Origin: an uncultured Anaerolineales bacterium
GTDB taxonomy: Bacteria; Chloroflexota; Anaerolineae; B4-G1
NCBI GenBank assembly: GCA_964393895.1
Contig: CAYMWP010000007.1
Coordinates: 81 to 64,080, forward strand
Length of the DNA: 64,000 nt
Direction of reading: 5' to 3'
Shown: one piece after another, positions 1 through 61,894 of the stretch
Numbering within the stretch: the stretch's first letter is position 1
Layout: each line of letters begins with the position of its first letter
Made by a program: the position numbers and the translations under genes
The notes under the pieces: model-generated
Database searches by the model: none
The model's input: only the letters and a program-made list of their open reading frames with translations
What the model was told of the DNA's origin: nothing

Positions 1-16
1 AGTTTAAAAAATCGAT

Positions 17-1024
17 ATGCCAAGATTTGCCACTTACCTTCATCCCCATGTGTTTTCCACCTCTAAACCAGTTGACCAAATCGAGTTTGTTGGTCAGTCT
101 CTCCCACACTTTGATGCAGTTCGTAAGGGGTTAGTCGAGGCTTTGGCTGATTATCCTTCAATTCCGCCAACCCAAGCGGATTTCAACGAATTCTATCGGG
201 TTCACGATCAACTGTACCTCAATAAACTGCAAAAAATGGCCCGTGATGAAGAAGTGGCAGAGTTGCCCAAACTGAGTATTGAATGTACCGGCTTAGAATA
301 TGGCATTCCTGGCTATCAATACGCTTTAGGCGGAATGTTTGAAGCTGTTAAGCAAATGAAAGCCGGCACTTTGGAACGAGCCTATTGTTTCAGTATCGGC
401 GGACATCACGCTCACCCTGATTGGGGGCACGGATATTGTATGCTCAATCCTTTGGCGGTGACAGCCCGGTATGCACAAGAACAGGGATTTGAAAACGTAC
501 TTGTTATTGACTGGGACCACCATCACGGAGATGGAACTCAAGCGATTTTTGCCAATGATAAAACGGTCTATTGCATAAGCATTCATAGCGTGCTTGATTT
601 GTATATGTCCTTCCAAAAAGTTTTACGACAAGGAACCACCACTGCGGCAGAGGAAGTAGGGCAGTGTAATATTCCGATACTCAACAAGACCTTTGATGAT
701 GACTTTTGGAAACAGATGGGACTGGAAGGGAAATACTACCGAGCCGAGCAAAGTCTAACAGAATTTCAAGCAAAGCTAGAGGAATTACCTTGGGTGCCGG
801 ACATCGTGATGATATTTTCGGGTTACGATGCTCATCGGGAAGATTGTGGTCGAGATATTCAAGAGTGGGTGAATGAAGATTTTGAGAAACTGACCATTTA
901 TGTTTTAGAAATGGCCAGGAAAGCAGCATGTCCTATTCTATCGGTTCACGGAGGTGGTTACAATGTTCCTGTTACAGTTTCGGCAGCATTGGCCCACGTC
1001 CACACTTTGGCTACACAGTTGTAA
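17..1024 (+). CDS. Histone deacetylase / acetylpolyamine amidohydrolase family protein (cassette 1)
   Basis: 335-aa ORF with deacetylase-fold motifs GGHHAHPDWGHGYCMLNP and DWDHHHGDGTQ. It is followed directly by an attC. Confidence 0.85.
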   Translation: MPRFATYLHPHVFSTSKPVDQIEFVGQSLPHFDAVRKGLVEALADYPSIPPTQADFNEFYRVHDQLYLNKLQKMARDEEVAELPKLSIECTGLEYGIPGYQYALGGMFEAVKQMKAGTLERAYCFSIGGHHAHPDWGHGYCMLNPLAVTARYAQEQGFENVLVIDWDHHHGDGTQAIFANDKTVYCISIHSVLDLYMSFQKVLRQGTTTAAEEVGQCNIPILNKTFDDDFWKQMGLEGKYYRAEQSLTEFQAKLEELPWVPDIVMIFSGYDAHREDCGRDIQEWVNEDFEKLTIYVLEMARKAACPILSVHGGGYNVPVTVSAALAHVHTLATQL

Positions 1025-1035
1025 AGACCAAGTGC

Positions 1036-1160
1036 AAGCTAACAAATCAATGCACGCGAATTGCTAACGCCCGTTTTTTCAAGGGTTATTTGCCAGCAAA
1101 GAAATGGGGAATTGTGGCGACTATTGCCCACCCGCAATCGCGTGATTTCAAGCGTTGGGC
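1036..1160 (+). repeat. attC site 1
   Basis: R'' AAGCTAAC at 1036-1043 and R' GTTGGGC at 1154-1160. L-box pairing is cacgcgaattgc (1052-1063) against gcaatcgcgtg (1134-1144) with one bulged T. The R' extension gttgggccgcc is the exact reverse complement of 2601-2611. Confidence 0.8.
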
Positions 1161-1266
1161 CGCCCTTCCCCATATAAAGCATAGAGAGGAGGCTTACCAA
1201 TACTCCATTTCATCGTCCCCCGAACTCTTCGGATCAACCAAACTATCACAAAAGGAGGCAACCAAG

Positions 1267-1518
1267 ATGGGATTACTAACGTGGATTGTTGTCGGTGCAA
1301 TTGCCGGTTGGTTGGCAGGCCAGGTCATGAAAGGTTCGGGCTTTGGCCTGATTGGCGATATCGTGATCGGCGTTATTGGCGCACTGGTGGGTGGCTGGCT
1401 TGCTAGCGCGCTCTTCAATGTGCCGGATGCTATCAACGGATTTAACCTCACCACGATCGTTGTTGCGTTCCTTGGCGCAGTTGTCGTGTTATTTATCGTT
1501 CGCTTGCTTAAGCACTAG
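1267..1518 (+). CDS. GlsB/YeaQ/YmgE family (transglycosylase-associated) small membrane protein (cassette 2)
   Basis: 83 aa. ATG at 1267 is preceded by AAGGAGG (1252-1258). The Gly-rich TM sequence MGLLTWIVVGAIAGWLAG...IGDIVIGVIGALVGGWL fits the family. The ORF-track start at 928 runs through attC 1 and is rejected. Confidence 0.85.
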   Translation: MGLLTWIVVGAIAGWLAGQVMKGSGFGLIGDIVIGVIGALVGGWLASALFNVPDAINGFNLTTIVVAFLGAVVVLFIVRLLKH

Positions 1519-1560
1519 CCTGGGTAATGTAGACGAGTGAAGAAAGGAGGGGAAGAAGCG

Positions 1561-2586
1561 ATGTCCATTATAACAGCTCCACAAAGCCAGTGGCAGGAAA
1601 CTGTACGCGAGAACATCCGCGAGGACGCCTCGTTCAGCAAGGAGTACCTGTTGATGAACGCCCTGGCTGGCACGATTGCCAGTTATGGATTGTTTGCCAA
1701 TAGTCCGGCCGTCGTCATTGGTGCCATGATCGTGGCTATGTTGTTGGGGCCTATAGTAGGCGTCTCATTGGCGTTGGTGGACAGCGATGCAAAGATTCTG
1801 CTGAAGAGCCTGTTATCGCTGCTTTCGGGAGCAGTCACGGTCCTTGCGACCGCGTTTATCATTGGTGCCGTCCATAATGATATTCCCATTACCAGCGAGA
1901 TCATGGCACGGACCGCCCCCAATTTCCTGGATCTAATGATTGCATTGGCAGGCGGTGCGGCAGGCGCCTATGCAACTGTTTCTTTCCGCCAGAGCTTGGC
2001 CCTGGTGGGCGTTGCCATCGCGACTGCATTGGTGCCGCCGTTGGCGTCAGCGAGTATTCTGCTCGCGCACGGCGAAATCAACCTGGCGATGGGAGCCCTT
2101 GAGCTGGCCGTTGTCAACCTGGTCGCGATCCAGTTTTCCGCCTCTGTCGTTCTGTGGTTAACAGGGTTTCGTCGCGTTACCCGCACCTCCGGGCAGCCCA
2201 TTGCAAAGTTCCTAAAACAAAATATACTGAGCATTGTCATTCTGGTGGTGCTTGGCGTCTCGCTGTCAGTTAATTCCCGGGATGCCATTGCCGAGCAACT
2301 CTTCGAGACGAAAACCCGATTCATCCTGCAACAGGAAATCAATCCTTCTTTGGGGAGCCACGTGACGGGAGTGCGCTTTGAGAGAGTATCGGGGAAAATC
2401 ATTGTGAGAGCGGTGGTGCGCGGCCCGAATTCGCCTTCCGCCAAACAGGTCGCGGCCCTGGAAGATCAATTGCCATCCTCACCCGATGGTACGCCTGTGA
2501 TACTGCGAATACGCTTCGTTCAGGTGATGATCATTGATCGAGACGGCCTGCTGGATTCGGATATACCGTTTTGGAGCGATGACTAG
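1561..2586 (+). CDS. DUF389 (TIGR00341-like) multi-pass membrane protein (cassette 2)
   Basis: ATG at 1561 follows GAAAGGAGGGG. The hydrophobic N-terminal half (NALAGTIASYGLFANSPAVVIGAMIVAMLLGPI) is typical of DUF389. Confidence 0.7.
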   Translation: MSIITAPQSQWQETVRENIREDASFSKEYLLMNALAGTIASYGLFANSPAVVIGAMIVAMLLGPIVGVSLALVDSDAKILLKSLLSLLSGAVTVLATAFIIGAVHNDIPITSEIMARTAPNFLDLMIALAGGAAGAYATVSFRQSLALVGVAIATALVPPLASASILLAHGEINLAMGALELAVVNLVAIQFSASVVLWLTGFRRVTRTSGQPIAKFLKQNILSIVILVVLGVSLSVNSRDAIAEQLFETKTRFILQQEINPSLGSHVTGVRFERVSGKIIVRAVVRGPNSPSAKQVAALEDQLPSSPDGTPVILRIRFVQVMIIDRDGLLDSDIPFWSDD

Positions 2587-2604
2587 CAAGGAATCAAGGT
2601 GGCG

Positions 2605-2763
2605 GCCCAACAAGGGCGTCAACCTGACCGCGCTGGCGCGCGTGTAAGCGGTGGTAGACCGCGCTTTGGAGCTGGATTTCTAACGAGGTTAGTTGCCGCG
2701 CAGCCGCGCGGCGGCTGACGCGAGCCGTTAGCGCGGAACGCTTCGCGTCCCGCGCCGTTGGGC
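2605..2763 (+). repeat. attC site 2 (contains the conserved hairpin and a second inner GTT core at 2727)
   Basis: R'' GCCCAAC at 2605-2611, inner core GTTAGCG at 2727-2733 and terminal R' GTTGGGC at 2757-2763. The conserved segment gttagcgcggaacgcttcgcgtcccgcgcc is shared with four other attCs. Confidence 0.75.
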
Positions 2764-2872
2764 CGCGCTTGCTCGGATTTCACCGTCACGCTAGGTCAAC
2801 GGAGCAAAGGTAATCGGATGTCGCGATGATATGTTTCGGCCATTCCTATCTAATCTAAAAGGAGGCAAAACG

Positions 2873-3865
2873 ATGGATTGGACCAGATTCCCCAAAGTTG
2901 AATTGCACCTTCATCTAGATTGCTCGCTCAGTTATGAGGTTATCTCACAGATCGACCCATCGATCACACTTGAGCAGTACCGTATGGACTTTATTGCCCC
3001 AGCCAAGTCGGATCTAACAGAGTATCTCAAGCGTGCTCCCAGTAGCTATCCCCTTATGCAGACACAAGAACAGCTTCGCCTGGTGACGTTAGACCTGTTT
3101 GAACAACTGCGGAAGGACAACATCCTATACGCCGAGATTCGGTTTGCTCCCCTGCTGCACACCGAAAGAGGGCTTTCACCTCGTCAGGTCGTCGCCAGTG
3201 TAGAGACGACAACGGCTCAGGCTGTGCGCGACACCGGCGTTGAGGCGCGCATCATTCTCTGTACGTTGCGCTACTATTCAAGAGCGCAAAGCCTCGAAAC
3301 CGTGCGTCTGGTTGAAGATTTCCGTGGCACATATGTAGCCGGGTTCGACGTTGCGGCCGACAAACCGGGGAATGTCTTTGATGAGCACCTGGCTGCATTT
3401 CAATACGCGCGCGACAAGGATATTCCCTATACGGCACACGCCGGAGAGACACGCGGCCCAGACAATGTCTGGGACACAGTACGGCACTTTGCTCCGTCAC
3501 GCCTCGGCCACGGTGTACCGTGTCTCGAACGTCCTGAACTGGTTGAACACATTCGGAAACACCGGATCCATCTCGAGGTGTGCCCGACCTCCAACATACA
3601 AACGAATACCTTTGAGACTTACGCCAATCATCCCATCGACGAACTCTATCGGGCGGGTATATCGGTGGGCGTGAACACCGATACACGTACCATCTCGAAT
3701 ATCACGTTGAGTGAGGAGTACGAAAAGTTACACGAGACGTTTGGATGGGGTGTTGAGGACTTTTTCAACTGCAATAGGAATGCTCTGGAAGCGGCGTTTA
3801 TCTCGGACGATGTGCGAGACAGGCTGATGGCGCAATTGGTTGAAGGCTATCAGGTGACTCTATGA
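2873..3865 (+). CDS. add: Adenosine deaminase (cassette 3)
   Basis: 330 aa. ATG at 2873 follows AAAAGGAGG (2857-2865). Motifs VELHLHLDCS (HxH metal site), TAHAGE and GVNTDT match the adenosine/AMP deaminase family. Confidence 0.85.
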   Translation: MDWTRFPKVELHLHLDCSLSYEVISQIDPSITLEQYRMDFIAPAKSDLTEYLKRAPSSYPLMQTQEQLRLVTLDLFEQLRKDNILYAEIRFAPLLHTERGLSPRQVVASVETTTAQAVRDTGVEARIILCTLRYYSRAQSLETVRLVEDFRGTYVAGFDVAADKPGNVFDEHLAAFQYARDKDIPYTAHAGETRGPDNVWDTVRHFAPSRLGHGVPCLERPELVEHIRKHRIHLEVCPTSNIQTNTFETYANHPIDELYRAGISVGVNTDTRTISNITLSEEYEKLHETFGWGVEDFFNCNRNALEAAFISDDVRDRLMAQLVEGYQVTL

Positions 3866-3894
3866 CCATAACTCTATCGCGTGGAAACCGCACG

Positions 3895-4025
3895 GCCTAA
3901 CCAATCGCTGAACCTGACCTGCTAATCGAGGCTCCAATTGTTGCCCGCCTTAGTTTTGCAGCGTTTCGGTTCGCAGGTGATGTCACTGTGAAACCCGCAG
4001 GCGGGTTAGCTCGCAGCCGTTAGCG
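3895..4025 (+). repeat. attC site 3
   Basis: R'' GCCTAAC at 3895-3901 and R' GTTAGCG at 4019-4025. The left arm ...cctgacctgctaatcg is shared with attC 5 and attC 6. Confidence 0.7.
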
Positions 4026-4044
4026 CGGAACGCTTCGCGTCCCG

Positions 4045-4203
4045 CGCTAACGGCGCGGCGGATGCAGCATCCGCTGGCTAGCCTATGGCTCGCTGACGCT
4101 CGCCTCCGGCTAACCAGCGGATTGAGCCGTCCAGCCCGCCTGTCTGGCTCCGCTGTGCTCCGCCAGCCGTCGGCCTGGCGGCTCATCCGCCGCGCCGTTG
4201 GGC
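4045..4203 (+). repeat. attC site 3b (the sole content of a 178-bp ORF-less cassette, 4020-4197)
   Basis: R'' CGCTAAC at 4045-4051 is the right arm of the 33-nt hairpin (4019-4051). ctaacggcgcggcggatg (4047-4064) pairs with catccgccgcgccgttg (4184-4200). R' is GTTGGGC at 4197-4203. Visually highly similar to 6723-6859. Confidence 0.7.
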
Positions 4204-4249
4204 GGCCAGTATCCACGTTCCGTCAGCGCCTATCTTTTGTGAAAACACG

Positions 4250-5374
4250 ATGAAACTCAAAAGTTCAGCTCAATACGTTTGTGCAATTCTTGCTCCGGCG
4301 ATGTTTGCCCTGGTCGCCTGTTGCCCCCCTATAACAACAATGCCGCAAGCTACTGCGACAATGCCCCAGGCCACCCAGGAGCTAGCTCCCCTTCCACTGT
4401 CAGAACTCGGCCCGTACCACGTAGGCACGCACACGTTTACGCGCGGGGATGCCAGCCGCGATAATCGCCAAGTCGGCATTACGGTGTGGTATCCAGCCCT
4501 ACGGCCCCAAGAATCAACCTACAGCGGCCCCATCGAAGATGCGGCTCCGGACCTCAGCGGTGCACCCTATCCTTTGATCCTATCATCGACCAAAGTGGCC
4601 AGGATACTCGCCCCCTATCTGATCAGTCACGGTTTCGCCTGGGCGAGCGTCGATAGAATCGATACGTACCGTCAGATGAATGACCAGATGTTTGAACAAC
4701 CACTCGACATCCTGTTTGCGTTGGGCCAGGTTGCCTCCAGTCCGCCAGAGGGTCTGAAGGGCATGATCGACGCCGAACATGCCGGAGCCATCGGCTATTC
4801 CTTTGACGGCTACAATGCGCTGGCCTTGAGCGGAGCACGCATCAACCCCGAACACTACCTGGCTCAATGTCCGAACCCTGACGCCACGACCGAAGCGATT
4901 CTGTCGCGTCTTTCCGCCTTTGACTGCGCTCCATCTCGCGCATGGGATGAATTCGCCGTCCATGCGGGCGAGGCCATCACCACCAGTGAAGATGGAATGT
5001 GGCAACCGATGACGGATGAGCGGATTCGCGCTGTAATGCCGCTGGCCGGGGAAGGGTGGTGGTTGTTCGGTGAAAGGGGATTGGCGGCAGTCGACCGGCC
5101 TACCTTAATCATCGTTGGCACCGAGGATGAACTCTACCCGGAAAACACACTGATCTTCGAGCACCTGGGGACACCCGACAAGGCGCTGATCTCGTTCGTC
5201 GGTCGAGGCCACATGATGGTGTACGAGTCAAAGATGATCGCCCGCATGGCGCATTTCGCGGCGGCCTTTTTCGGCTACCACTTGCAGGGGCGTGAAGACC
5301 TGGCTTGGTACTTCTCGAAGGATTTCGTCGCGCAGCACGATGACCTAGCCTGGGGTGTGCATACGGACAGGTAA
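4250..5374 (+). CDS. Alpha/beta hydrolase lipoprotein (PAF-acetylhydrolase/dienelactone-hydrolase-like) (cassette 4)
   Basis: 374 aa. A lipoprotein signal with lipobox ends in ...FALVAC|C. There is a nucleophile-elbow-like IGYSFDGYNAL and a C-terminal ...IIVGTEDELYP...GRGHMM typical of alpha/beta hydrolases. Confidence 0.7.
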   Translation: MKLKSSAQYVCAILAPAMFALVACCPPITTMPQATATMPQATQELAPLPLSELGPYHVGTHTFTRGDASRDNRQVGITVWYPALRPQESTYSGPIEDAAPDLSGAPYPLILSSTKVARILAPYLISHGFAWASVDRIDTYRQMNDQMFEQPLDILFALGQVASSPPEGLKGMIDAEHAGAIGYSFDGYNALALSGARINPEHYLAQCPNPDATTEAILSRLSAFDCAPSRAWDEFAVHAGEAITTSEDGMWQPMTDERIRAVMPLAGEGWWLFGERGLAAVDRPTLIIVGTEDELYPENTLIFEHLGTPDKALISFVGRGHMMVYESKMIARMAHFAAAFFGYHLQGREDLAWYFSKDFVAQHDDLAWGVHTDR

Positions 5375-5406
5375 TGCTCGCGAAGCAAGATGGTGTGTTG
5401 CTGGCC

Positions 5407-5537
5407 GCCCAACCCACGCTGGAGGCGACAGCGCCTATCGGCGCTTTTTGAATCGCGGCTTTTTCGCTTTGCTGGTAAACTTGTTCAGCAAGTTGGTTCT
5501 GCAAATCCGGCGCTGCGCCTCAGCTTTTCCGTTGGGC
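5407..5537 (+). repeat. attC site 4
   Basis: R'' GCCCAAC at 5407-5413 and R' GTTGGGC at 5531-5537. cccaacccacgctggaggcgacagcgcc pairs with ggcgctgcgcctcagcttttccgttggg with bulges. Both flanking extensions show 13/13 complementarity with the neighbouring attCs. Confidence 0.8.
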
Positions 5538-5587
5538 GGCAACTTTCGCTCGCTCATATGAACTCGTTTCACTCAAGGATCCAGACT

Positions 5588-6559
5588 ATGGGAAAGTTCG
5601 AACTGGGCGCAATCAAAGTCAGCACTGCTGCAGCGAATGCTCTGACAGAAACCTGTCTTGAGCTAGAAACCCTACTTACCAGGCACCAGGATGGGGATTG
5701 GGGCAATGTGGATAATGCCCAGCGCCTGCGAAACGAGTGGGCCGTGGAACACAATGGACTCATCCGCTCAATGTATGAGTTACCAAACGGTGCCTTGCTC
5801 CTGGTAAGCACTGCCACTACCCGATCCTGTACTTGGGCTATGCTTGAGACGGAGTATCAAGGTAAGGAGGTCAGCATTCAGGAAGGTTATGCGCTCTGGG
5901 CTACATCTTATGACCAAGAGCGGAATCCCTTGATAGCCTTGGAGGAGCCACATGTTGACTTGATGCTGGACCAATTGGCTGCCACGGTGGCCTTGGATGT
6001 TGGCACCGGCACCGGTCGATACGCACGTAAACTTGCACAGCGTGGGATCAAGGTTTTTGCCGTTGATCGATGCTCTGAGATGCTAAACGTGGCGCAGCGC
6101 CGTGCTCAAGAGAACATGCTGAGGATAGACTTCCTGCGCGGGTCATTGAGCGCCCTCCCCTTCAGGTCAAACTACTTCGAATTGCTGGTTTGCGGACTGG
6201 TGCTGTGTCATATCCCCAATCTGATGCAGACGATAGGCGAGTTCTCGCGAGTCACGAGAGCAGGAGGACATCTCTTGATTACCGATCTTCATCCTAATGC
6301 TGTGGCAGCAGACTGGCGGACTGTGTTCGCTCAGGCAGAAGCGTGGTACCTGCTGCCCAACATCAGACACACACGGGATGATTATCTTGAGGCTGTGGAA
6401 GCGGCTGGCTTCACGCTGCTTGATGTGATCGATTTGTACCTTCGTGATATACCTGATGAAACGATGCCTTACTACGAATCGTGGGTTCGCGAAGAAGGCC
6501 ACAGGCTATTCGGCTTGATAGTCTTTGCCCAGAGGGTTGCAACAGCAGGTAGGGGGTAA
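5588..6559 (+). CDS. Fusion of an N-terminal GDWG-motif module with a class I SAM-dependent methyltransferase (cassette 5)
   Basis: ATG at 5588 follows AAGGA. The N-terminus is MGKFELG...HQDGDWGNVD...LETEY. The C-terminal domain has SAM motif I LDVGTGTGRYARKLAQRG and a Methyltransf_11-like post-I/II region. The ORF-track start at 5390 runs through attC 4 and is rejected. Confidence 0.7.
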   Translation: MGKFELGAIKVSTAAANALTETCLELETLLTRHQDGDWGNVDNAQRLRNEWAVEHNGLIRSMYELPNGALLLVSTATTRSCTWAMLETEYQGKEVSIQEGYALWATSYDQERNPLIALEEPHVDLMLDQLAATVALDVGTGTGRYARKLAQRGIKVFAVDRCSEMLNVAQRRAQENMLRIDFLRGSLSALPFRSNYFELLVCGLVLCHIPNLMQTIGEFSRVTRAGGHLLITDLHPNAVAADWRTVFAQAEAWYLLPNIRHTRDDYLEAVEAAGFTLLDVIDLYLRDIPDETMPYYESWVREEGHRLFGLIVFAQRVATAGRG

Positions 6560-6576
6560 ATCTATCAAACGTTGCC

Positions 6577-6703
6577 GCCCAACACCACATGCACCCGACC
6601 TGCTAATCGCGCGACCAAATCGACGTCGGTTTCGTTGTAGAGGGTTGTTTTGAACAGGGGGACAAACTGCAAACCCGCAGGCGGGTGATGTAAACCGTTA
6701 GCG
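6577..6703 (+). repeat. attC site 5
   Basis: R'' GCCCAAC at 6577-6583 and R' GTTAGCG at 6697-6703. The left arm cacccgacctgctaatcg is shared with attC 3 and attC 6. Confidence 0.75.
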
Positions 6704-6722
6704 CGGAACGCTTCGCGTCCCG

Positions 6723-6859
6723 CGCTAACGGCGCGGCGGACTGGCGTCCGCTGGCTAGCCTCCGGCTAACCAGCGGATCGAGCCGTCCAGCCCGCCTGTC
6801 TGGCTCCGCTGCGCTCCGCCAGCCGTCGGCCTGGTGGCTCATCCGCCGCACCGTTAGCT
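6723..6859 (+). repeat. attC site 5b (the sole content of a 156-bp ORF-less cassette, 6698-6853)
   Basis: R'' CGCTAAC at 6723-6729 is the right arm of the hairpin (6697-6729). R' is GTTAGCT at 6853-6859. It is a paralogue of 4045-4203. Confidence 0.7.
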
Positions 6860-6891
6860 GGTCGTTCGCGTTTCCTCATCCGAAAATTTCC

Positions 6892-6920
6892 TTGAGTTCA
6901 GTCACTGTTTGTAGTATAAT
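6892..6920 (+). promoter_or_regulatory. Cassette-internal sigma70-type promoter for R-M system 1
   Basis: -35 TTGAGT (6892-6897), 17-nt spacer and a perfect -10 TATAAT (6915-6920), lying 30 nt upstream of the methyltransferase ATG. Confidence 0.6.
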
Positions 6921-6950
6921 AGAATAAACGTTCTGACAAGAGGAAAATTG

Positions 6951-7847
6951 ATGAATTTCTTGAACCAGATTATTCATGGTGACTGTGAACAAGTGTTAAA
7001 AGAGTTTCCGGATAACTCGATTGGCTTGATTTTTACTTCGCCACCCTACGCAGACCAGAGAAAGAACACATATGGTGGTATAAAACCAAGTGAATATGTA
7101 GGTTGGTTTTTACCAAAGGCGAAACAATTCTTGCGTGTGCTCAAGCCCACGGGAACGTTCATCCTAAACATCAAAGAAAGAGTTGTAAACGGAGAGCGGC
7201 ATACTTACGTTATTCAGCTAATACTCCGGCTAAGAGAGCAAGGGTGGTTGTGGACGGAAGAGTTTGTCTGGCATAAGAAAAACTCTTATCCTGGCAAGTG
7301 GCCCAATAGATTTAGAGATGGATGGGAAAGATTGATACAATTCAATAAACATCGCAAGTTCAATATGTATCAGGAATCCGTTATGGTTCCCGTTGGAGAT
7401 TGGGCTCAAGATCGTTTGGCTAACCTTAGTGAAACAGACAAAATCAGAGATGAATCCAAAGTGGAAAGCGGCTTTGGTAAAAACATATCAAACTGGGTTG
7501 GGCGTGACAAGGTTTATCCAGATAATGTTGTTCATATGGCTACAGAGTGTTCAAATCGTAATCATAGTGCGGCTTTTCCGATTGACTTGCCAATTTGGTT
7601 TATCAAACTGTTCACGGCTGAAGGCGATGTAGTGTTGGACCCGTTTATTGGTTCAGGAACAACGGCAGCAGCAGCTAAACAGCTTGGACGCAGTTATGTG
7701 GGGATTGACATTAACGAGGAGTATTGCCGCCTAGCGGAAAACAGGGTTCTGCAAGTGCAACCAAGCCTATTTGAAACAATCCAATACGACAACGCGAAAC
7801 AAGAAAGCACAATACAAGTACAATCTCGTTTGCTCGAAAGAACTTGA
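6951..7847 (+). CDS. Type II DNA methyltransferase, beta-class N4-cytosine/N6-adenine (cassette 6)
   Basis: 298 aa. Motif IV is IFTSPPYADQ near the N-terminus and motif I is DPFIGSGTTAAAAKQLGRSYVGIDINEEY near the C-terminus (beta-class order). The RBS is AGAGGAAAA. Confidence 0.85.
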   Translation: MNFLNQIIHGDCEQVLKEFPDNSIGLIFTSPPYADQRKNTYGGIKPSEYVGWFLPKAKQFLRVLKPTGTFILNIKERVVNGERHTYVIQLILRLREQGWLWTEEFVWHKKNSYPGKWPNRFRDGWERLIQFNKHRKFNMYQESVMVPVGDWAQDRLANLSETDKIRDESKVESGFGKNISNWVGRDKVYPDNVVHMATECSNRNHSAAFPIDLPIWFIKLFTAEGDVVLDPFIGSGTTAAAAKQLGRSYVGIDINEEYCRLAENRVLQVQPSLFETIQYDNAKQESTIQVQSRLLERT

Positions 7848-8644
7848 AACTATACGATGGGGAGCTTGGAATGAATCCACTGGATTTAGATGAGGTTCGT
7901 CAATTTGTTAACGTCAACATCGTGTCTTTTCATCAACACCGAATCACTTCACTGGAGCAACTCACACTCAACAAGCTACTCAAGAAGAAAAACCCCTACT
8001 TGTTCAAGGCCAAACACATCACAACTGCCGGAGAGTTAATGGAAAGCCTGTTAGAGGCTTTCCTGTCTTCATCTGAAGAAAAACACTTTGGGGATTTTCT
8101 GGAAGATTTGGCAATTTTCATCGCAGGAAAAACAAGTGGAGGGCACAAGTCAACAGCACAAGGTGTTGACTTGGAATTCATTAGCAGAAAAACGCACTTT
8201 ATAGTTTCGATCAAGTCGGGGCCGAACTGGGGAAATAGCTCTCAACACAAGAAACTCGCCCAAGACCTGAGAGATGCTGTTATTCGTGTCAAACAGTCGC
8301 GAACTGCGTTGAATGTACAACCTGTGTTGGGTATTTGCTATGGAAAAACTCGCACGAATTATATGAAAGCAGGGTATCTGAAAGTCGTAGGGCAAAACTT
8401 TTGGTATCTCATTAGCGAGAATCAGGACCTCTATACCGACATCATTGAGCCAATTGGCTATCGCGCCAAAGAACGCAATGATACGTTCTATACCGAGCGC
8501 GCTAAAGTTGTAAATCGGTTCACCAAGCAATTCATTGATGATTTTTGTGCTCCGAACGGAGCAATAGATTGGGTAAAGCTCGTAGAGTTTAATAGCGGCA
8601 ACTACGATTTAGACAAGTTCTTATCCCAATCCAGTACCAGCTAA
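7844..8644 (+). CDS. Putative type II restriction endonuclease, PD-(D/E)XK-like (cassette 6)
   Basis: It overlaps the methyltransferase stop (TTGA at 7844-7847); an alternative ATG at 7871 follows GGGGAG. A candidate catalytic segment is GVDLEF...FIVSIKSG (D...E/S-x-K). The stop codon TAA (8642-8644) lies inside the R'' of attC 6. Confidence 0.6.
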   Translation: MKLYDGELGMNPLDLDEVRQFVNVNIVSFHQHRITSLEQLTLNKLLKKKNPYLFKAKHITTAGELMESLLEAFLSSSEEKHFGDFLEDLAIFIAGKTSGGHKSTAQGVDLEFISRKTHFIVSIKSGPNWGNSSQHKKLAQDLRDAVIRVKQSRTALNVQPVLGICYGKTRTNYMKAGYLKVVGQNFWYLISENQDLYTDIIEPIGYRAKERNDTFYTERAKVVNRFTKQFIDDFCAPNGAIDWVKLVEFNSGNYDLDKFLSQSSTS

Positions 8645-8796
8645 CACCCGCTGCGCACCCGACCGGGCTAATCAGCGGCAACTTTAACTGCTCCACGCCT
8701 GAGAAAGTGGTAAAAGGCAACCGTCACACGCCAGACCCGCCCGGCGGATGAGCTTTGTCGTTAGCGCGGAACGCTTCGCGTCCCGCGCCGTTAGGT
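8639..8796 (+). repeat. attC site 6 (with conserved hairpin and inner core at 8760)
   Basis: R'' AGCTAAC at 8639-8645, inner GTTAGCG at 8760-8766 and terminal R' GTTAGGT at 8790-8796. Confidence 0.8.
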
Positions 8797-8842
8797 GGCG
8801 TTAATGGTTTGTGGAGCAAACACTCAATAAAAGGAGGCTCCA

Positions 8843-9612
8843 ATGGCAATGACGAGGAAGTTCGATGGATTAGGAGGAGTGATGCTTGTATGGGTCATCG
8901 CGAATTTTCTGGGCGTTGCAGCGATTGGTGTGTCAACTCTTTTCTTTCCGCTTCTACTGCTCATTCCCATTCCTGGCTGGCTATTGGCATCTCTGATGCT
9001 GGGCTTGCCAATCGGGGTTGCTCAATGGATAGTTCTTCGACGTGTTGCTCCGGTTTCGATTCTATGACTCCACTGAAAAAACCAGGTTTTTCAATGGTTT
9101 TATGGGACAGCGTCCCACTTTTGGCTCAAAATTGACGTGTTTGTGGGAATATCTCACCAAAAAACCTGGTTTTTGGGCATTTTATCCCCACCGACGAACA
9201 AACCAACACCTTTTTTCAGGAAAGTCTTCTATGGGTTCTCACTATTACTGCTGGTCTGCTCTTGGGGTTAGTGACTCTTAATCAACTGATACCTGCTGGA
9301 ACTATGGAGTTTCTTGACGATGAGTCTGTTCTCGTATTGACAGCAGATTACACGATTATCGGCCTGCTCGTGGGATTGATTCAGTGGTTGTTCCTACGTG
9401 GTCACTTCAGCAAGTCGTGGGTTTGGGTGTTGGGCGATGGAGTTGGACTGGGACTGGGAACCGGTCTGGTATTAGCCACAAACCTGATCGATCACGGGAT
9501 ACTCTCCATCATACTTGTAACTCTGGTGTACGCTATTGTGACGGGATTAGCCATTTTGTGGTTTTCAGCCTCGCATAGAAAGGCTGAGAGTGATTTGGTC
9601 AACGCCACCTAA
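8843..9612 (+). pseudogene. Repeat-module membrane protein interrupted by a palindromic insertion (cassette 7)
   Basis: The 5' part (8843-9067, RBS AAGGAGG) ends ...GVAQWIVLRRVAPVSIL*. The 3' part is open from 9136 in another frame (…ESLLWVLTITAGLLLG…GLIQWLFLRGHFSKSWVWVLG…) to 9612. Both parts carry the same QW-x-x-LR TM module, which suggests a single ancestral gene. Confidence 0.55.
9062..9216. repeat. MITE-like insertion bracketed by inverted AAAAACCWGGTTTTT copies (boundaries approximate)
   Basis: gaaaaaaccaggtttttc (9073-9090) and caaaaaacctggtttttg (9158-9175) are inverted copies. The segment separates the two halves of the cassette-7 gene and changes the reading frame. Confidence 0.45.
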
Positions 9613-9766
9613 CCAGCCCATGAACCCGACGCCGCTATCGCGGCGCATACCGGGCGGGGCGTCGCGGAAGATACTTGCTGAATTTTCGAGCGTTTCGGGG
9701 CCAAGCCGCGTCGCGGGTTATGGGCGACCGTTAGCGCGGAACGCTTCGCGTCCCGCGCCGTTAGCA
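9607..9766 (+). repeat. attC site 7 (with conserved hairpin and inner core at 9730)
   Basis: R'' ACCTAAC at 9607-9613 (contains the stop TAA at 9610-9612). ctaaccagcccatgaacccgacgc pairs with gcgtcgcgggttatgggcgaccgttag. Inner GTTAGCG is at 9730-9736 and terminal R' GTTAGCA at 9760-9766. Confidence 0.8.
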
Positions 9767-9882
9767 CCGTCGTCTCAACCATTGCAATACTCGCCAATTA
9801 TAGCCTGTTGCGGTAAAATAGTCTGTGTGTGGACCCAAAAATCCATTTGATAATCACAGACACAGACAGGCGGTTAGAATTA

Positions 9883-10869
9883 ATGAATTTACCTCTTTTT
9901 GATACACCTAAGAAACTCGAAGACCACTTTAATCCACAGGCTGATATTGTACTTTATCAGGGAGACGTAAGCGATTTTGTTGCAACCGTTCCTGATAACT
10001 CAGTGAGTCTGATTATTACCTCACCCCCTTATAATCTAGGTAAAGAGTACGAAGACCGTGTTTCCATAGGAAAATATTTGGATACACAAGCGCAGGTGAT
10101 AGCTGAACTCTACCGTGTACTCAGAGCAGATGGTAGTGTTTGCTGGCAAGTAGGTAACTTTGTGGAAAATGGGGAAGTATATCCTTTGGATATTCTTTAC
10201 TATGATATTTTCAAGACGCTAGGCTTGCAGTTGAGGAATCGGATCGTCTGGCATTTTGGACATGGGCTGCACGCCTCCAAACGTTTCTCAGGACGTTATG
10301 AAACAATGTTGTGGTTTACCAAAAGCGATGATTATGTCTTCAATCTTGATACAGTACGTGTGCCTTCCAAATATCCAGGCAAGCGACACTATAAAGGCCC
10401 TAAGAAAGGCAAGTTATCGGGCAATCCTTTGGGCAAGAATCCCTCAGATGTTTGGGAATTTCTGGCCCAGGAATGGGAAGCTGCTTTTTGGGACATTCCA
10501 AATGTGAAATCAAATCACCCAGAAAAAACGATTCATCCTTGTCAATATCCTATTGCACTAATTGAAAGGTGTGTTCTGGCGCTGACTAACGAAGGCGATT
10601 GGGTGTTTGACCCTTACGTAGGAGTAGGAACCTCACTGATTGCTGGCACAATGCACAATCGTCGTGTGATGGGTAGTGAGCAAGAGTCCAAGTATATTGA
10701 TATTGCCCGTGAACGTCTTCAAGCGTACTTCAATGGCGCGCTACCTTATCGTCCTCTTGGTAAGCCTGTTTACCAGCCCACAGGAAGGGAAAAAGTGTCG
10801 CAAATGCCAGAAGAATGGCAAAACGCAACTCAGGGACGGCTACTAGAAGAAAAAGGAAAATATGAATGA
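9883..10869 (+). CDS. Type II DNA methyltransferase, beta-class (N4-cytosine-type SPPY motif) (cassette 8)
   Basis: ATG at 9883 (MNLPLFDTPKK); the ORF-track GTG at 9829 is possible. Motif IV is IITSPPYNLGKEY and motif I is DPYVGVGTSLIAG. It overlaps the downstream endonuclease gene (ATGA at 10866-10869). Confidence 0.85.
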   Translation: MNLPLFDTPKKLEDHFNPQADIVLYQGDVSDFVATVPDNSVSLIITSPPYNLGKEYEDRVSIGKYLDTQAQVIAELYRVLRADGSVCWQVGNFVENGEVYPLDILYYDIFKTLGLQLRNRIVWHFGHGLHASKRFSGRYETMLWFTKSDDYVFNLDTVRVPSKYPGKRHYKGPKKGKLSGNPLGKNPSDVWEFLAQEWEAAFWDIPNVKSNHPEKTIHPCQYPIALIERCVLALTNEGDWVFDPYVGVGTSLIAGTMHNRRVMGSEQESKYIDIARERLQAYFNGALPYRPLGKPVYQPTGREKVSQMPEEWQNATQGRLLEEKGKYE

Positions 10870-11438
10870 AAATCACAGGCATATACTCGTTCAATAACGG
10901 CAGAGAAATCATCGAGGCCAAGTTCGCAGCCGAGTTGCATGACGTAAAGCAAGTCATTGCAGCCGTAGACAGCAAGAGACACAAGACAAAGACCAGCCGT
11001 GAAAAGACTATGCCTGGGAGAAAGTTGTACAGTCCTCGTGCGCTCAACAAGGCTTTCGAAGCAGAGTTTGAAGAAAGGGAATGGCATACTCGTAGAGTCG
11101 CGTGCGATTACCCAACACAATACTATGTTGGTGACTATCAATCAGACGACTCGTTTTCAGGAGCCTTTCGTGAGATGGACTTTGTAAAGAATCGTGTAGG
11201 CGTAGAAGTGCAATTCGGCAAGTATGCCTTTATGGTTTACAATGTCTGTGCCAAGATGACGATATTTCATAAGCTCGACGTGATTGATGTCGGAATCGAG
11301 GTTGTACCAGTCAAAGAGTTTGCGAACGAAATGTCAACGGGCGTTTCGTACTTTGAGCAGTTTGTGTGGGATCTGGAGCAACGCGGGGTTTCTGACATTG
11401 ACATTCCAGTACTCATTCTTGGAATCACCCACAAGTAG
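10866..11438 (+). CDS. BglII/BamHI-like type II restriction endonuclease (cassette 8)
   Basis: 190 aa. MDFVKNRVGVEVQ gives D105-X8-E114-X-Q116, the same spacing as the BglII catalytic triad Asp84-X8-Glu93-X-Gln95 as recalled. It is translationally coupled to the methyltransferase. Confidence 0.7.
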   Translation: MKITGIYSFNNGREIIEAKFAAELHDVKQVIAAVDSKRHKTKTSREKTMPGRKLYSPRALNKAFEAEFEEREWHTRRVACDYPTQYYVGDYQSDDSFSGAFREMDFVKNRVGVEVQFGKYAFMVYNVCAKMTIFHKLDVIDVGIEVVPVKEFANEMSTGVSYFEQFVWDLEQRGVSDIDIPVLILGITHK

Positions 11439-11461
11439 GCCGGATAAAGTAGTGAGTGAGG

Positions 11462-11590
11462 TGCTAACCCCGCATCCACCCGACTTGGCTGAGCGGCGCG
11501 CTTTCCAAGTTTTTCACCCGCATTGGGGTTGGCTGACAGGCGGAGGTGTTCACGCCGCAGCCGCCAAGCGGGTGATGCTAGCCGTTATGC
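11462..11590 (+). repeat. attC site 8
   Basis: R'' TGCTAAC at 11462-11468 and R' GTTATGC at 11584-11590. gctaaccccgcatccacccgacttggc pairs with gccaagcgggtgatgctagccgttat with bulges. It lacks the conserved hairpin. Confidence 0.75.
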
Positions 11591-11618
11591 GGCAAATACA
11601 AAACACGGGAGAATTCAA

Positions 11619-13049
11619 ATGAAAAGCAGACATTTGCTTGTAGCGCTCACTCTAGGATTAGGATTGTCTTTGACTCTGCTATGGTTGCTGAGTGGCAGAT
11701 TGTCCGCCAACGCTGCGCCAGCTGAAGAACTGCGAGTCTGTCTCAATGGATGTTCTTACTCATCTATACAGGCTGCCGTAGATGATGCCAGCAGTGGCGA
11801 TGTCATAAAGGTAGTGGCTGGCATCTACACCGATGTGCATGTGCGTCCCCGCAACGATATTGCCGCGACTGGACTCGTCACACAAGTAGTTTACATCAGT
11901 AAAACGGTGACCATCCAAGGCGGCTACACTACCAATAACTGGACTACACCAGACCCTGAGGCTAACCCTACCACGTTGGATGCAGGAAGCCAAGGCCGTG
12001 TGATCTATATTACTGGAGACATCAGTCCCACGATTGAAGGATTGCGCATTACTGGCGGTGATGCATCCGGGCTGGGTGGCGATGGGTCGTTCTTTGGACA
12101 AGATGCTGGTGGCGGCATCTATATCATCAGCGCGACGGCTATCATCAAGGATAACTATGTGTTCAGCAATACTGCTGAATATGGCGGTGGGATATACCAG
12201 AGTTTGGGTGCAGGCAAAGTAAGCGAGAATACAATTAGCGAGAACTTTGCTTCCGGTGAGGGAGGCGGGGTGGGCCTGTATGAAAGCACCGCCTTGCTTG
12301 ATAACAATCTCATCAGTCACAATACATCTTCCTGGGGAGGTGGGCTTTACCTGCACTCCAGCCCGGCAGCACTCATTGATAATATCATCACTGCCAACGT
12401 GTCTACGGGGCGCGGTGGCGGAGGCCTGTTCTTATGGTGGAGCGACGCTGTTCTGACTGGAAATCGAATCATTTCCAATACATCGCCCTGGAATATTAAC
12501 GGCGGAATACACGTTTTTTCCAGTTCTCCAGCACTGACTAATAATGTAATCGTGGGCAACCAAAGCGGCGGGATACAAATTGAAGGACGCTCAGATCTCC
12601 ACTTGTTGCACAACACCGTTGCCGACAACGGAACGGACGGTATTGGGATGTACGTGACACACTACATTGACTTGTGGGGAACCCCTATGTACGCCTCTGT
12701 GGCGCTGACCAATACTATCTTGGTGAGTCACAGTGTTGCCATCAGTATCACGGGCGGCAACACCGTGACGGTCAATAGTGTCCTTTGGCACAACACGCCC
12801 ATCACTGTTTCGCAGTCCACAACGGCGACTGTCAGCGTGCAGAATCAGCGCACTGGCGATCCAGCCTTCGCTGCTGACGGTTACCATCTGACGATTGGTT
12901 CGGCAGCTATTGACAATGGCGTGGATGCTGGGGTGGTGACGGACATTGATGATGAACCGCGCCCCGCTAGTGTGGGTTATGATCTCGGCGCGGATGAGAT
13001 TTGGCACAGTATCTACCTTCCGCTGATCTCACGCAGCTATCAACCGTAG
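11619..13049 (+). CDS. Secreted right-handed parallel beta-helix repeat protein (cassette 9)
   Basis: ATG at 11619 follows GGGAG. Signal/TM sequence is MKSRHLLVALTLGLGLSLTLLWLL...ANA. It has repeated GGGIY/GGGLYL/GGGLFLW turns and a C-terminal DIDDEPRP...YDLGADE motif. It ends in IYLPLISRSYQP. Confidence 0.8.
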   Translation: MKSRHLLVALTLGLGLSLTLLWLLSGRLSANAAPAEELRVCLNGCSYSSIQAAVDDASSGDVIKVVAGIYTDVHVRPRNDIAATGLVTQVVYISKTVTIQGGYTTNNWTTPDPEANPTTLDAGSQGRVIYITGDISPTIEGLRITGGDASGLGGDGSFFGQDAGGGIYIISATAIIKDNYVFSNTAEYGGGIYQSLGAGKVSENTISENFASGEGGGVGLYESTALLDNNLISHNTSSWGGGLYLHSSPAALIDNIITANVSTGRGGGGLFLWWSDAVLTGNRIISNTSPWNINGGIHVFSSSPALTNNVIVGNQSGGIQIEGRSDLHLLHNTVADNGTDGIGMYVTHYIDLWGTPMYASVALTNTILVSHSVAISITGGNTVTVNSVLWHNTPITVSQSTTATVSVQNQRTGDPAFAADGYHLTIGSAAIDNGVDAGVVTDIDDEPRPASVGYDLGADEIWHSIYLPLISRSYQP

Positions 13050-13081
13050 TATAAGTGAGCGTTCCTCCGTCGAGGGAGGCC

Positions 13082-13210
13082 GCATAACAAGGGCTTCACC
13101 CGACGCCGCTTGCGCGGCTGGTTAGCGGCGGCATTACGCGCTTTGTGGTTGGTTGGTTAGCGAAGGTGTCTTCCACGCAGTCGCGGCGCGGGTGAAGCCA
13201 ACCGTTATGC
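13082..13210 (+). repeat. attC site 9 (last recognisable attC)
   Basis: R'' GCATAAC at 13082-13088 and R' GTTATGC at 13204-13210. cataacaagggcttcacccgacgccgc pairs with gcggcgcgggtgaagccaaccgttatg. Confidence 0.75.
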
Positions 13211-61579: not shown

Positions 61580-61894
61580 TGGCTCCTCGGGTAGGACTTG
61601 AACCTACAGCCAACCGGTTACGTCTACCCCCGCGTTTCCACGAGGAACGGACTATCTCATCACCCCAGAGGGGTGCGGGGCGCTCGAGGATGGCTTATCG
61701 GTCGGGCTCCTCACCATCTAGTCTCTGCACCTTCCCGGTTACTGTGATGCCCATTCACCGGGCTTGGCTCAGGATTGCCGTCACCCAAAGTGTTACGGTT
61801 TCCCTGAATTCACCCCGTTTTTCCGCTGGCCATTGCTGGTCAGGGCTGCAATTTAGCCTACAGCCGGCCGCTCTGCCAATTGAGCTACCGAGGA
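61580..61894 (-). tRNA. tRNA-Asn(GUU) interrupted by a group I intron (exons 61860-61894 and 61580-61620)
   Basis: The joined exons give a 76-nt cloverleaf: TCCTCGG TA GCTC AATTGGCA GAGC G GCCGG CTGT|TAA CCGGT TGGCT GTAGG TTCAAGT CCTAC CCGAGGA G CCA. All stems are Watson-Crick apart from one G-U pair. CCA is encoded. Confidence 0.85.
61621..61859 (-). ncRNA. Group I intron (IC3-like, 239 nt, no ORF) in the anticodon loop between nt 35 and 36
   Basis: The 5' exon ends in U and the intron ends in G. P1 pairs exon GGCUGU (61860-61865) with intron GCAGCC (61844-61849), with a U.G pair at the splice site. Core segments GGCAAUCCUGAGCCAAGCC (61761-61779) and GGAAGGUGCAGAGACUAGAUGG (61714-61735) match the conserved IC3 core recalled from the cyanobacterial tRNA-Leu and Azoarcus tRNA-Ile introns. 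Confidence 0.8.

Follow-up and report, generated by a model that had tools for sequence, protein, structure and literature searches.

The first 13,210 nucleotides of a 64,000-nucleotide stretch of DNA from an uncultured Anaerolineales bacterium (contig CAYMWP010000007.1; the whole stretch is termed here the window) carry nine gene cassettes, every one of them on the + strand and each closed by an attC site of 124-131 nt. The observations described here make it very probable that this segment represents the distal portion of an integron cassette array in the chromosome of an uncultured member of the Chloroflexota (Anaerolineae/Ardenticatenales-like). The cargo of the array as a whole includes toxin-antitoxin (TA) systems, two restriction-modification (RM) pairs, and small membrane or secreted proteins. 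As a first-pass annotation of the window had noted from the sequence alone, the open reading frames (ORFs) of the array lie on the + strand throughout and the segment is AT-richer than its surroundings: its GC content is lower and heterogeneous (0.43-0.60; the neighbouring flank has 0.59-0.69 as far as about 52 kb, beyond which a few intervals drop to 0.54-0.58).

The cassette boundaries, each of which falls between the G and the TT of a GTT on the + strand, are at 1154, 2727, 4019, 5531, 6697, 8760, 9730, 11584 and 13204. In the following list, R' denotes the GTT side and R'' the AAC side of a site, a neighbour match is the agreement between the R' of one site and the complement of the R'' of the next, and scores of attC sites are in bits under a covariance model (termed R1) built from 14 aligned sites.

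1-1154 (+): cassette 1, the start of which lies left of the window; histone-deacetylase-family gene at 17-1024 (Pfam Hist_deacetyl); attC E1 at 1037-1160 (62.9 bits)
1155-2727 (+): cassette 2; Transgly_assoc at 1267-1518 and DUF389 at 1561-2586; attC E2 at 2605-2733 (96.3 bits); 11/11 match to the R' of E1
2728-2757 (+): 30-bp hairpin mini-unit with two bounding GTTs; hairpin at 2731-2755
2758-4019 (+): cassette 3; adenosine deaminase at 2873-3865 (TIGR01430, 273 bits); attC E3a at 3895-4025 (85.6 bits)
4020-4197 (+): ORF-less b-type cassette, copy 1; hairpin at 4023-4047, GC-rich leader, and internal 96-nt canonical attC at 4108-4203 (30.2 bits)
4198-5531 (+): cassette 4; alpha/beta-hydrolase at 4250-5374, with a weak PETase-like match that is under the Pfam cutoff; attC E4 at 5407-5537 (88.2 bits); neighbour match 13/13
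5532-6697 (+): cassette 5; S-adenosylmethionine-dependent methyltransferase at 5588-6559; attC E5a at 6577-6703 (96.9 bits); neighbour match 13/13
6698-6853 (+): ORF-less b-type cassette, copy 2 (E5b); hairpin at 6701-6725
6854-8760 (+): cassette 6; type II RM pair, that is, N6/N4 methylase at 6951-7847 (Pfam E = 1e-42) and EcoO109I-like endonuclease at 7871-8644 (Pfam E = 6e-72), the latter with its stop codon inside R''; promoter-like site at 6892-6920; attC E6 at 8639-8766; neighbour match 10/10
8761-8790 (+): 30-bp hairpin mini-unit; hairpin at 8764-8788
8791-9730 (+): cassette 7; gene for a 200-aa membrane protein at 8843-9612, split by an insertion resembling a miniature inverted-repeat transposable element (MITE); attC E7 at 9607-9736 (84.6 bits); neighbour match 13/13
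9731-9760 (+): 30-bp hairpin mini-unit; hairpin at 9734-9758
9761-11584 (+): cassette 8; second RM pair, that is, methylase at 9883-10869 (Pfam E = 1e-48) and BglII-like endonuclease at 10866-11438 (Pfam E = 4e-25); attC E8 at 11462-11590 (105.3 bits); neighbour match 9/9
11585-13204 (+): cassette 9, the last; beta-helix/NosD-like protein at 11619-13049, predicted from a reading of its N-terminus to be secreted; terminal attC E9 at 13082-13210 (100.9 bits); neighbour match 10/10

The terminal attC (13082-13210) is followed by a BNR/TIG gene that has a host-like GC content (0.60-0.63) and no attC behind it, and the array is therefore taken to end at 13210. On the other side it runs on beyond the window: a metagenome contig (L001) that is 99.9% identical to the window over 9.2 kb, and whose position 4527 corresponds to window position 1, extends the array by at least 4.5 kb to the left. 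This extension adds bPH_2, PIN/HicB-like, PEMT, DUF6064 and DUF4258/MqsA-like cassettes, bringing the array to at least 16 sites, and stops in the repeated b-type element. Short-read contigs break both at this element and at the MITE-like insertion. A scan for promoters and terminators revealed no enrichment relative to shuffles.

The MITE-like insertion in the cassette 7 gene is 160 bp long (9067-9226), has imperfect terminal inverted repeats and is flanked by a target-site duplication, TTCTATG, at 9060-9066 and 9227-9233; taking out 167 bp restores a single ORF. Four independent metagenome contigs break inside 9067-9226, which suggests that the element may be present in multiple copies in the genome.

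Chimeric junctions and attC architecture

The first-pass annotation interpreted the segment as an array of cassettes whose attC sites had each been split by strand exchange between the G and TT of the GTT, so that the bases after one GTT are complementary to those before the AAC of the next element and not of the same element. This interpretation is upheld by the complementarity between neighbours, by the covariation and bulge geometry of the sites, by the R1 matches to attC sites of class 1 integrons and beside a TIGR02249 integrase gene, and by a bPH_2 cassette with identical boundaries in three arrays. The seven exact GTT/AAC pairs that had been quoted in its favor are correctly placed, unique in the window and exact reverse complements, and an eighth pair (2757 against 3891) agrees, as claimed, at 9/11 positions. 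A dyad reported near 1052/1134 is likewise real, with one bulged A, though its left arm had been placed off by one base (it lies at 1053-1064).

To score such complementarity generally, every R' was compared with every R'' among 20 junction sites (from the window and L001), taking the longest perfect complementary run as the score. Perfect runs of 9-14 nt were found at 12 of the 15 adjacent junctions between a site and the next site; the three others (A3 to A4, A4 to A5, and E2 to E3a) have decayed, with one or two mismatches each. In unrelated R'/R'' pairs the runs measure 3-6 nt; values of 7-11 nt are reached by a few pairs that are not adjacent but have near-identical boxes. Two more matches of 10 nt link the inner GTTs of E3a and E5a to the AAC of the respective following b-type unit (for copy 1, the GTT at 4019 matches the AAC at 4049-4051 at 10/10 positions), and GTTAGCTTGC, which is upstream in L001, is complementary to GCAAGCTAAC at 1034-1043 in cassette 1. 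The junctions are, in other words, chimeric. Two stop codons had been said to lie inside R'', and both do (within the TAAs at 8642-8644 and 9610-9612).

The first-pass annotation had counted eleven elements of 125-160 bp. The sites are real and, in their R1 matches, all share the same (+ strand) orientation, but as a set they are heterogeneous: nine are canonical sites of 124-131 nt and two are composite ORF-less units (4020-4197 and 6698-6853), while the three 30-bp hairpin mini-units (2728-2757, 8761-8790 and 9731-9760) had been merged into the sites that precede them. Across the array, lengths are 124-131 nt for the nine window sites, 85-131 nt for the L001 sites and 96 nt for the internal b-type attC. 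The attC sites of Vibrio chromosomal integrons are, at about 120-130 nt, similar to those of the window. The description of the sites as unusually long is not supported, inasmuch as 124-131 nt falls within the published range of 57-141 bp (PMC5027507); the apparent extra length arose because the 25-nt hairpin mini-unit (three times alone) and the ORF-less cassette (twice) had been merged with the sites.

The 14 sites from which R1 was built comprise 12 from the array (124-131 nt) and one each from two other contigs, L016 and L014 (124-133 nt overall), and their alignment has a mean column identity of 52%. The GTT and the last A and C of the AAC are invariant, and the first A of the AAC is at least 90% conserved; near-invariance extends to a CCGA motif in the 5' arm and its CGG counterpart in the 3' arm. 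The proposed structure consists of the R box, a spacer of 2-4 nt, a 5-bp stem, one unpaired base, a 6-bp stem, an unpaired A and a 7-bp stem. Under this structure 86.9% of cells are paired, as compared with 30-44% when the partners are slid by 1-3 columns; 16 of the 23 proposed pairs exhibit compensatory double changes, and the covariation score is reached by none of 500 shuffles. The unpaired alignment columns are 17 and 24, with the 6-bp helix between them, and column 24 invariably holds a top-strand A (bottom-strand T). When folded with DNA parameters, a check that the first-pass annotation had proposed, most bottom strands adopt the corresponding structure, with extrahelical bases present as single-base bulges on the 3' ('') arm.

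According to published rules, attC sites carry their extrahelical bases on the '' arm, with a distal T that is conserved and a 6-bp stem separating the first such base from the last; the R and L boxes are set apart by a short spacer that stays unpaired; and in chromosomal integrons the variable terminal structures of attC are longer (PMC5027507). The window sites have this canonical architecture, which is conserved in structure rather than in sequence.

Within the window, R1 detects only the nine sites on which it was trained and one internal b-type site; Rfam yields nothing in the array at the gathering score. When applied to two clinical class 1 integrons from plasmids (25.5 kb), R1 matches 5/5 attC sites on the correct strand, namely those of aadA2 (43.7 bits, E = 6.5e-9), two copies of aac(6')-Ib, arr-3, and blaIMP-6 (15.2 bits, E = 0.035); beyond these there are just two weak matches, one of 12 bits (E = 0.2) at the aadA2 site but on its other strand, and one of 9 bits (E = 0.9). 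The window sites are thus equivalent to attC sites that IntI1 recombines. What they share with the class 1 sites (aadA2, aac(6')-Ib, blaIMP-6 and arr-3) is a TAAC, a short spacer, a 5-bp L stem, one bulge, a 6-bp stem ending in CCG, a bulged top-strand A (bottom-strand T), a further stem and the GTT; they differ in their central variable region, which is 0-28 nt in class 1 (in the three sites with alignments) but about 70 nt here, and in the first bottom-strand bulge, which is a G in class 1 but mostly a C here.

Matches to R1 also occur in environmental sequences. Among metagenome contigs harboring bPH_2 homologues, R1 finds co-oriented arrays in L023, L088, L043 and L045. In another contig (L078) it matches two sites that are downstream of, and divergent from, an integron integrase gene (TIGR02249, 442.7 bits against a cutoff of 265), and the first cassette there follows the same complementarity rule (attI-GTTAGATT / AATCTAAC).

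The bPH_2 cassette itself occurs with identical boundaries (a start at GTT followed by AGCCGCC, and the R'' GGCGGCTAAC) in three arrays with different neighbours. In L001 it comes after a b-type attC; in L016, where it is 70% identical, it is the first cassette and adjoins a frameshifted intI with the IntI-specific domain; and in L017, where it is 72% identical, it comes after a HicAB cassette. This comparative evidence suggests that the bPH_2 unit moves as a cassette through exchange between the G and TT.

Two other features were observed around bPH_2 cassettes. The integrase gene of L016, a soil contig (15-1043, - strand), is apparently degraded: its reading frame shifts after GLRLM, and where the IntI consensus has the conserved LGH motif, close to the catalytic Tyr, it has PVD. 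In L095 (1-2035 and 2748-2879; likewise in L096-L098, from other samples) a group II intron lies on both sides of a 99%-identical bPH_2 cassette. This intron, which has RVT_1 and GIIM domains, a match to Rfam RF00029, and the ends 5' GTGCG and 3' CGCGAT, sits exactly after the GTTA of an attC R' box in the same orientation as the cassettes. In being oriented as the cassettes are, it resembles UHB.I2 of a soda-lake integron (PMC7923331) and differs from group IIC-attC introns, which insert into the bottom strand (PMC3001079). The window itself lacks the group II intron.

Each unit consists of one gene or a gene pair, either promoterless or self-promoted, with an attC behind it. From these features a mechanism may be proposed. 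The bottom strand of each attC would fold into an imperfect hairpin, in which the R box is separated by a short unpaired spacer from an L-box stem whose two extrahelical bases are 6 bp apart. A tyrosine recombinase of the IntI type would cut the bottom-strand AAC between A and C (i.e., between the G and TT of the top strand), so that the bases after each GTT would belong to the next cassette and would pair with its own R''. Folding and cutting of this kind, which are borrowed by analogy from the integron family, constitute the most likely mechanism.

A repeated gene-less unit and its hairpin

Five sites (E2, E3a, E5a, E6 and E7) end in an inner GTTAGCGCGG that is followed by an identical 25-nt hairpin, GCGCGGAACGCTTCGCGTCCCGCGC. 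This hairpin has five exact copies in the window, all of them inside the array, where none would be expected by chance. After E2, E6 and E7 it leads directly into CGTT, which creates a 30-bp unit between two GTTs; after E3 and E5 it leads into TAAC and then into an element of about 126-148 nt that is very stable and closes with a canonical 96-nt attC (4108-4203 in copy 1). Because this attC lies within the b-type element, the whole 156-178 bp unit behaves as an ORF-less cassette, one that is composed of the 25-nt hairpin, the 96-nt attC and a leader with 16 nt of pairing to the 3' end of this attC. The bottom strand of E5b, which is near-identical to the copy at 4020-4197, folds at -58.6 kcal/mol (z = -7.15). 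Further b-type copies occur at both ends of the L001 extension, one of them fused to a truncated attC, and at least 7 of the approximately 16 cassette junctions of the array have either the b-type unit or its hairpin-only form.

A hybrid site was observed at 4270-4502 of L001, where the 5' half of a canonical attC (R'' GTGCTAAC) is joined to a 3' b-type part without the hairpin; hence the DUF4258/MqsA-like TA cassette ends in a b-type attC.

In the full unit, two CCGCGC direct repeats stand at the base of a perfect 16-bp palindrome; without the segment that they enclose, the unit becomes the hairpin-only form. We infer from this that the hairpin-only unit may be the remnant of a b-type cassette that underwent palindrome deletion between the CCGCGC repeats, probably by replication slippage. 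Two other origins were considered and rejected. One was that the hairpin is a remnant of the group II intron, whose ends (GTGCG...CGCGAT) do not match; the other was that the hairpin-only unit arose through IntI, but excision between its only two GTTs would remove the hairpin as well.

A scan of a genome collection with the 25-nt hairpin yielded as its sole match one 3-kb contig of an Ardenticatenales metagenome-assembled genome (MAG); it did not return the source genome. There (L014, from Ardenticatenales bacterium GLR113, WSZX01000340.1), a 29-nt unit at about 1779-1807, AGCGCGGAACGCTTCGCGTCCCGCGCCGT, is identical to the hairpin unit of the window and lies between different cassettes, with degenerate GTT flanks (GTAGAT... 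and ...CGTCAGG). Since an identical unit thus recurs among different cassettes, the hairpin may be more than a scar. It is conceivable, though unlikely, that the b-type unit is a self-propagating gene-less cassette that might insulate or terminate between cassettes (at the level of RNA or DNA) or modulate attC folding; an insulator- or terminator-like role, or a role in attC folding, would, if true, go beyond a deletion scar.

The integrase and rival explanations

The first-pass annotation placed the integrase outside of the window, and indeed tblastn with IntI1 (using a query 100% identical to the real IntI1, against the window and all loci) gave no match in it. The leftward extension that had been proposed as a check yielded the 4.5 kb of L001, and the IntI search found no tyrosine recombinase in the window or in L001. 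Farther to the left, the homologues that turned up in a metagenome scan with the leftmost cassette protein were all diverged (79% identity at most), and the 99%-identical cluster (P0001) consists of short contigs from other samples, in which the upstream sequence is the group II intron and not more of the array. The IntI stitched together from L016 belongs to a large Anaerolineales/Anaerolineae clade; none of the five clade members checked comes from the samples of the window, and those that are NCBI MAG contigs are cut off immediately upstream of intI. The integrase is not visible because the assembled contig ends inside the array. We infer that an active integrase in this genome, sited to the left beyond the contig end, would be moving the cassettes today.

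Several observations weigh against an integron array of this kind. Neither an integron integrase nor an attI or Pc was found, the tblastn search with IntI1 being negative both in the window and in the 4.5 kb of L001; the source contig (64128 bp, or 128 bp more than the window) ends inside the array; the first extrahelical bottom-strand base is mostly C rather than the usual G; and copies from at least nine metagenome samples are collinear and at least 99.4% identical (most of them at least 99.9%), so that among these contigs no gain or loss of cassettes within the population was seen. Some of these points bear on a specific rival, namely that the array is a cluster of attC sites lacking an integron integrase (CALIN): either a relic that has lost intI or a block separated from its platform by rearrangement, in which cassettes would move only with an integrase supplied in trans. 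This rival competes with the notion of a complete integron and not with that of a cassette array. Roughly speaking, a complete sedentary chromosomal integron (SCI) seems the reasonably probable alternative and a CALIN a possible but rather doubtful one. The uniformity among samples favors a CALIN, as does the lack of intI within 17.7 kb of array and 50 kb of flank; so do the decayed junctions already mentioned, an attC that is fused or truncated (A5/b), the cassette gene broken by the MITE-like insertion, the frameshift in the related L016 intI, and the fact that CALINs are common (PMC4889954). Yet, while the 50 kb to the right of the array are without intI, the left end is an assembly break, and it is there, precisely where intI would be expected, that the array is open. 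Moreover, perfect complementarity over 9-14 nt persists at most junctions, the near identity of the b-type copies would fit recent duplication or movement, and intact integron integrases are abundant in Anaerolineae MAGs.

A more radical rival dispenses with cassettes altogether: the elements would be ordinary intergenic repeats, that is, palindromes similar to repetitive extragenic palindromic (REP) sequences, bacterial interspersed mosaic elements or MITEs, with the GTT/AAC complementarity as a by-product. Some features do point that way: the elements are intergenic, GC-rich and palindromic, the b-type element and the 25-nt hairpin each recur nearly unchanged, and a true MITE-like insertion is present in the array. 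But the complementary bases are in the next element, not in the same one, and are different at each junction; the sites vary in sequence while covarying in structure; and R1 also detects clinical attC sites and sites beside intI. The first-pass annotation had pointed to scattering of the elements, in the manner of REP or MITE repeats, as the pattern at odds with an integron. Instead the elements have a single orientation, neighbours are linked, and the flank contains no copy: on 13211-64000 (50.8 kb), R1 with its filters off gives no match above 13 bits on either strand. Ordinary repeats are therefore a highly improbable explanation, and the cassette-array reading is retained.

Host and relation to known integrons

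The first-pass guess of a Chloroflexota-like host agrees with the chromosomal genes: the closest named relatives of a HypE-like protein (81-86% identical) are all from Chloroflexota/Anaerolineae MAGs, and a mate of a kinase of the window in a 90%-identity cluster is annotated as Chloroflexota. The Ardenticatenales origin of the sole hairpin match and the Anaerolineales/Anaerolineae annotation of the L016 IntI clade point to the same host group. A further feature of the chromosomal flank is a tRNA-Asn(GUU) gene at 61580-61894 (- strand), the anticodon loop of which is split by a 239-nt group I intron (Rfam RF00028, 86.6 bits). ARAGORN missed this gene by default but with its intron option reported tRNA-Asn i(36,239), and once spliced the sequence is recognized as tRNA-Asn(GUU). 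In the literature that was found, group I introns of bacterial tRNAs occur in those for Leu, fMet, Ile and Arg as well as Gly and Lys; Asn is not among them.

Poor characterization of integrons in such genomes had been offered as a reason for interest, and this is not supported: integrons in Chloroflexi were reported by Cury et al. in 2016 (PMC4889954), and integron integrases are routinely annotated, in many Anaerolineales/Anaerolineae MAGs. Among known systems, the array resembles SCI arrays, for example the Vibrio cholerae superintegron (with its VCR attC sites), in being a long, chromosomal, co-oriented array of small cassettes with TA cassettes and chimeric R boxes, and in having attC sites with long variable terminal structures (PMC5027507). 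It differs in that the sites of one SCI often are highly conserved (PMC5027507), whereas those of the window array are strongly diverse, with only the b-type copies being near-identical, and in that the host belongs to the Chloroflexota and intI was not observed. With CALINs (Cury et al. 2016, PMC4889954) it has in common that two or more attC sites are spaced by less than 4 kb, that the available sequence lacks intI, and that resistance genes are missing; most CALINs, however, have fewer than 6 sites, as opposed to at least 16 here, where the left end is an assembly break.

The array is thus an ordinary one, of a known type (integron array or CALIN), with canonical attC sites of normal length, and it opens no new question; the only mildly novel lead is the repeated gene-less cassette with its hairpin derivative. 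What it adds is one well-resolved cassette array from an uncultured Chloroflexota lineage, in which attC sites obey the structural rules of clinical attC sites (extrahelical bases 6 bp apart and a conserved T) to the extent that a model of the former finds class 1 attC. Its cargo, consisting of two RM systems, TA pairs, and secreted or membrane proteins, fits the role of environmental integrons as stores of defence and niche genes.

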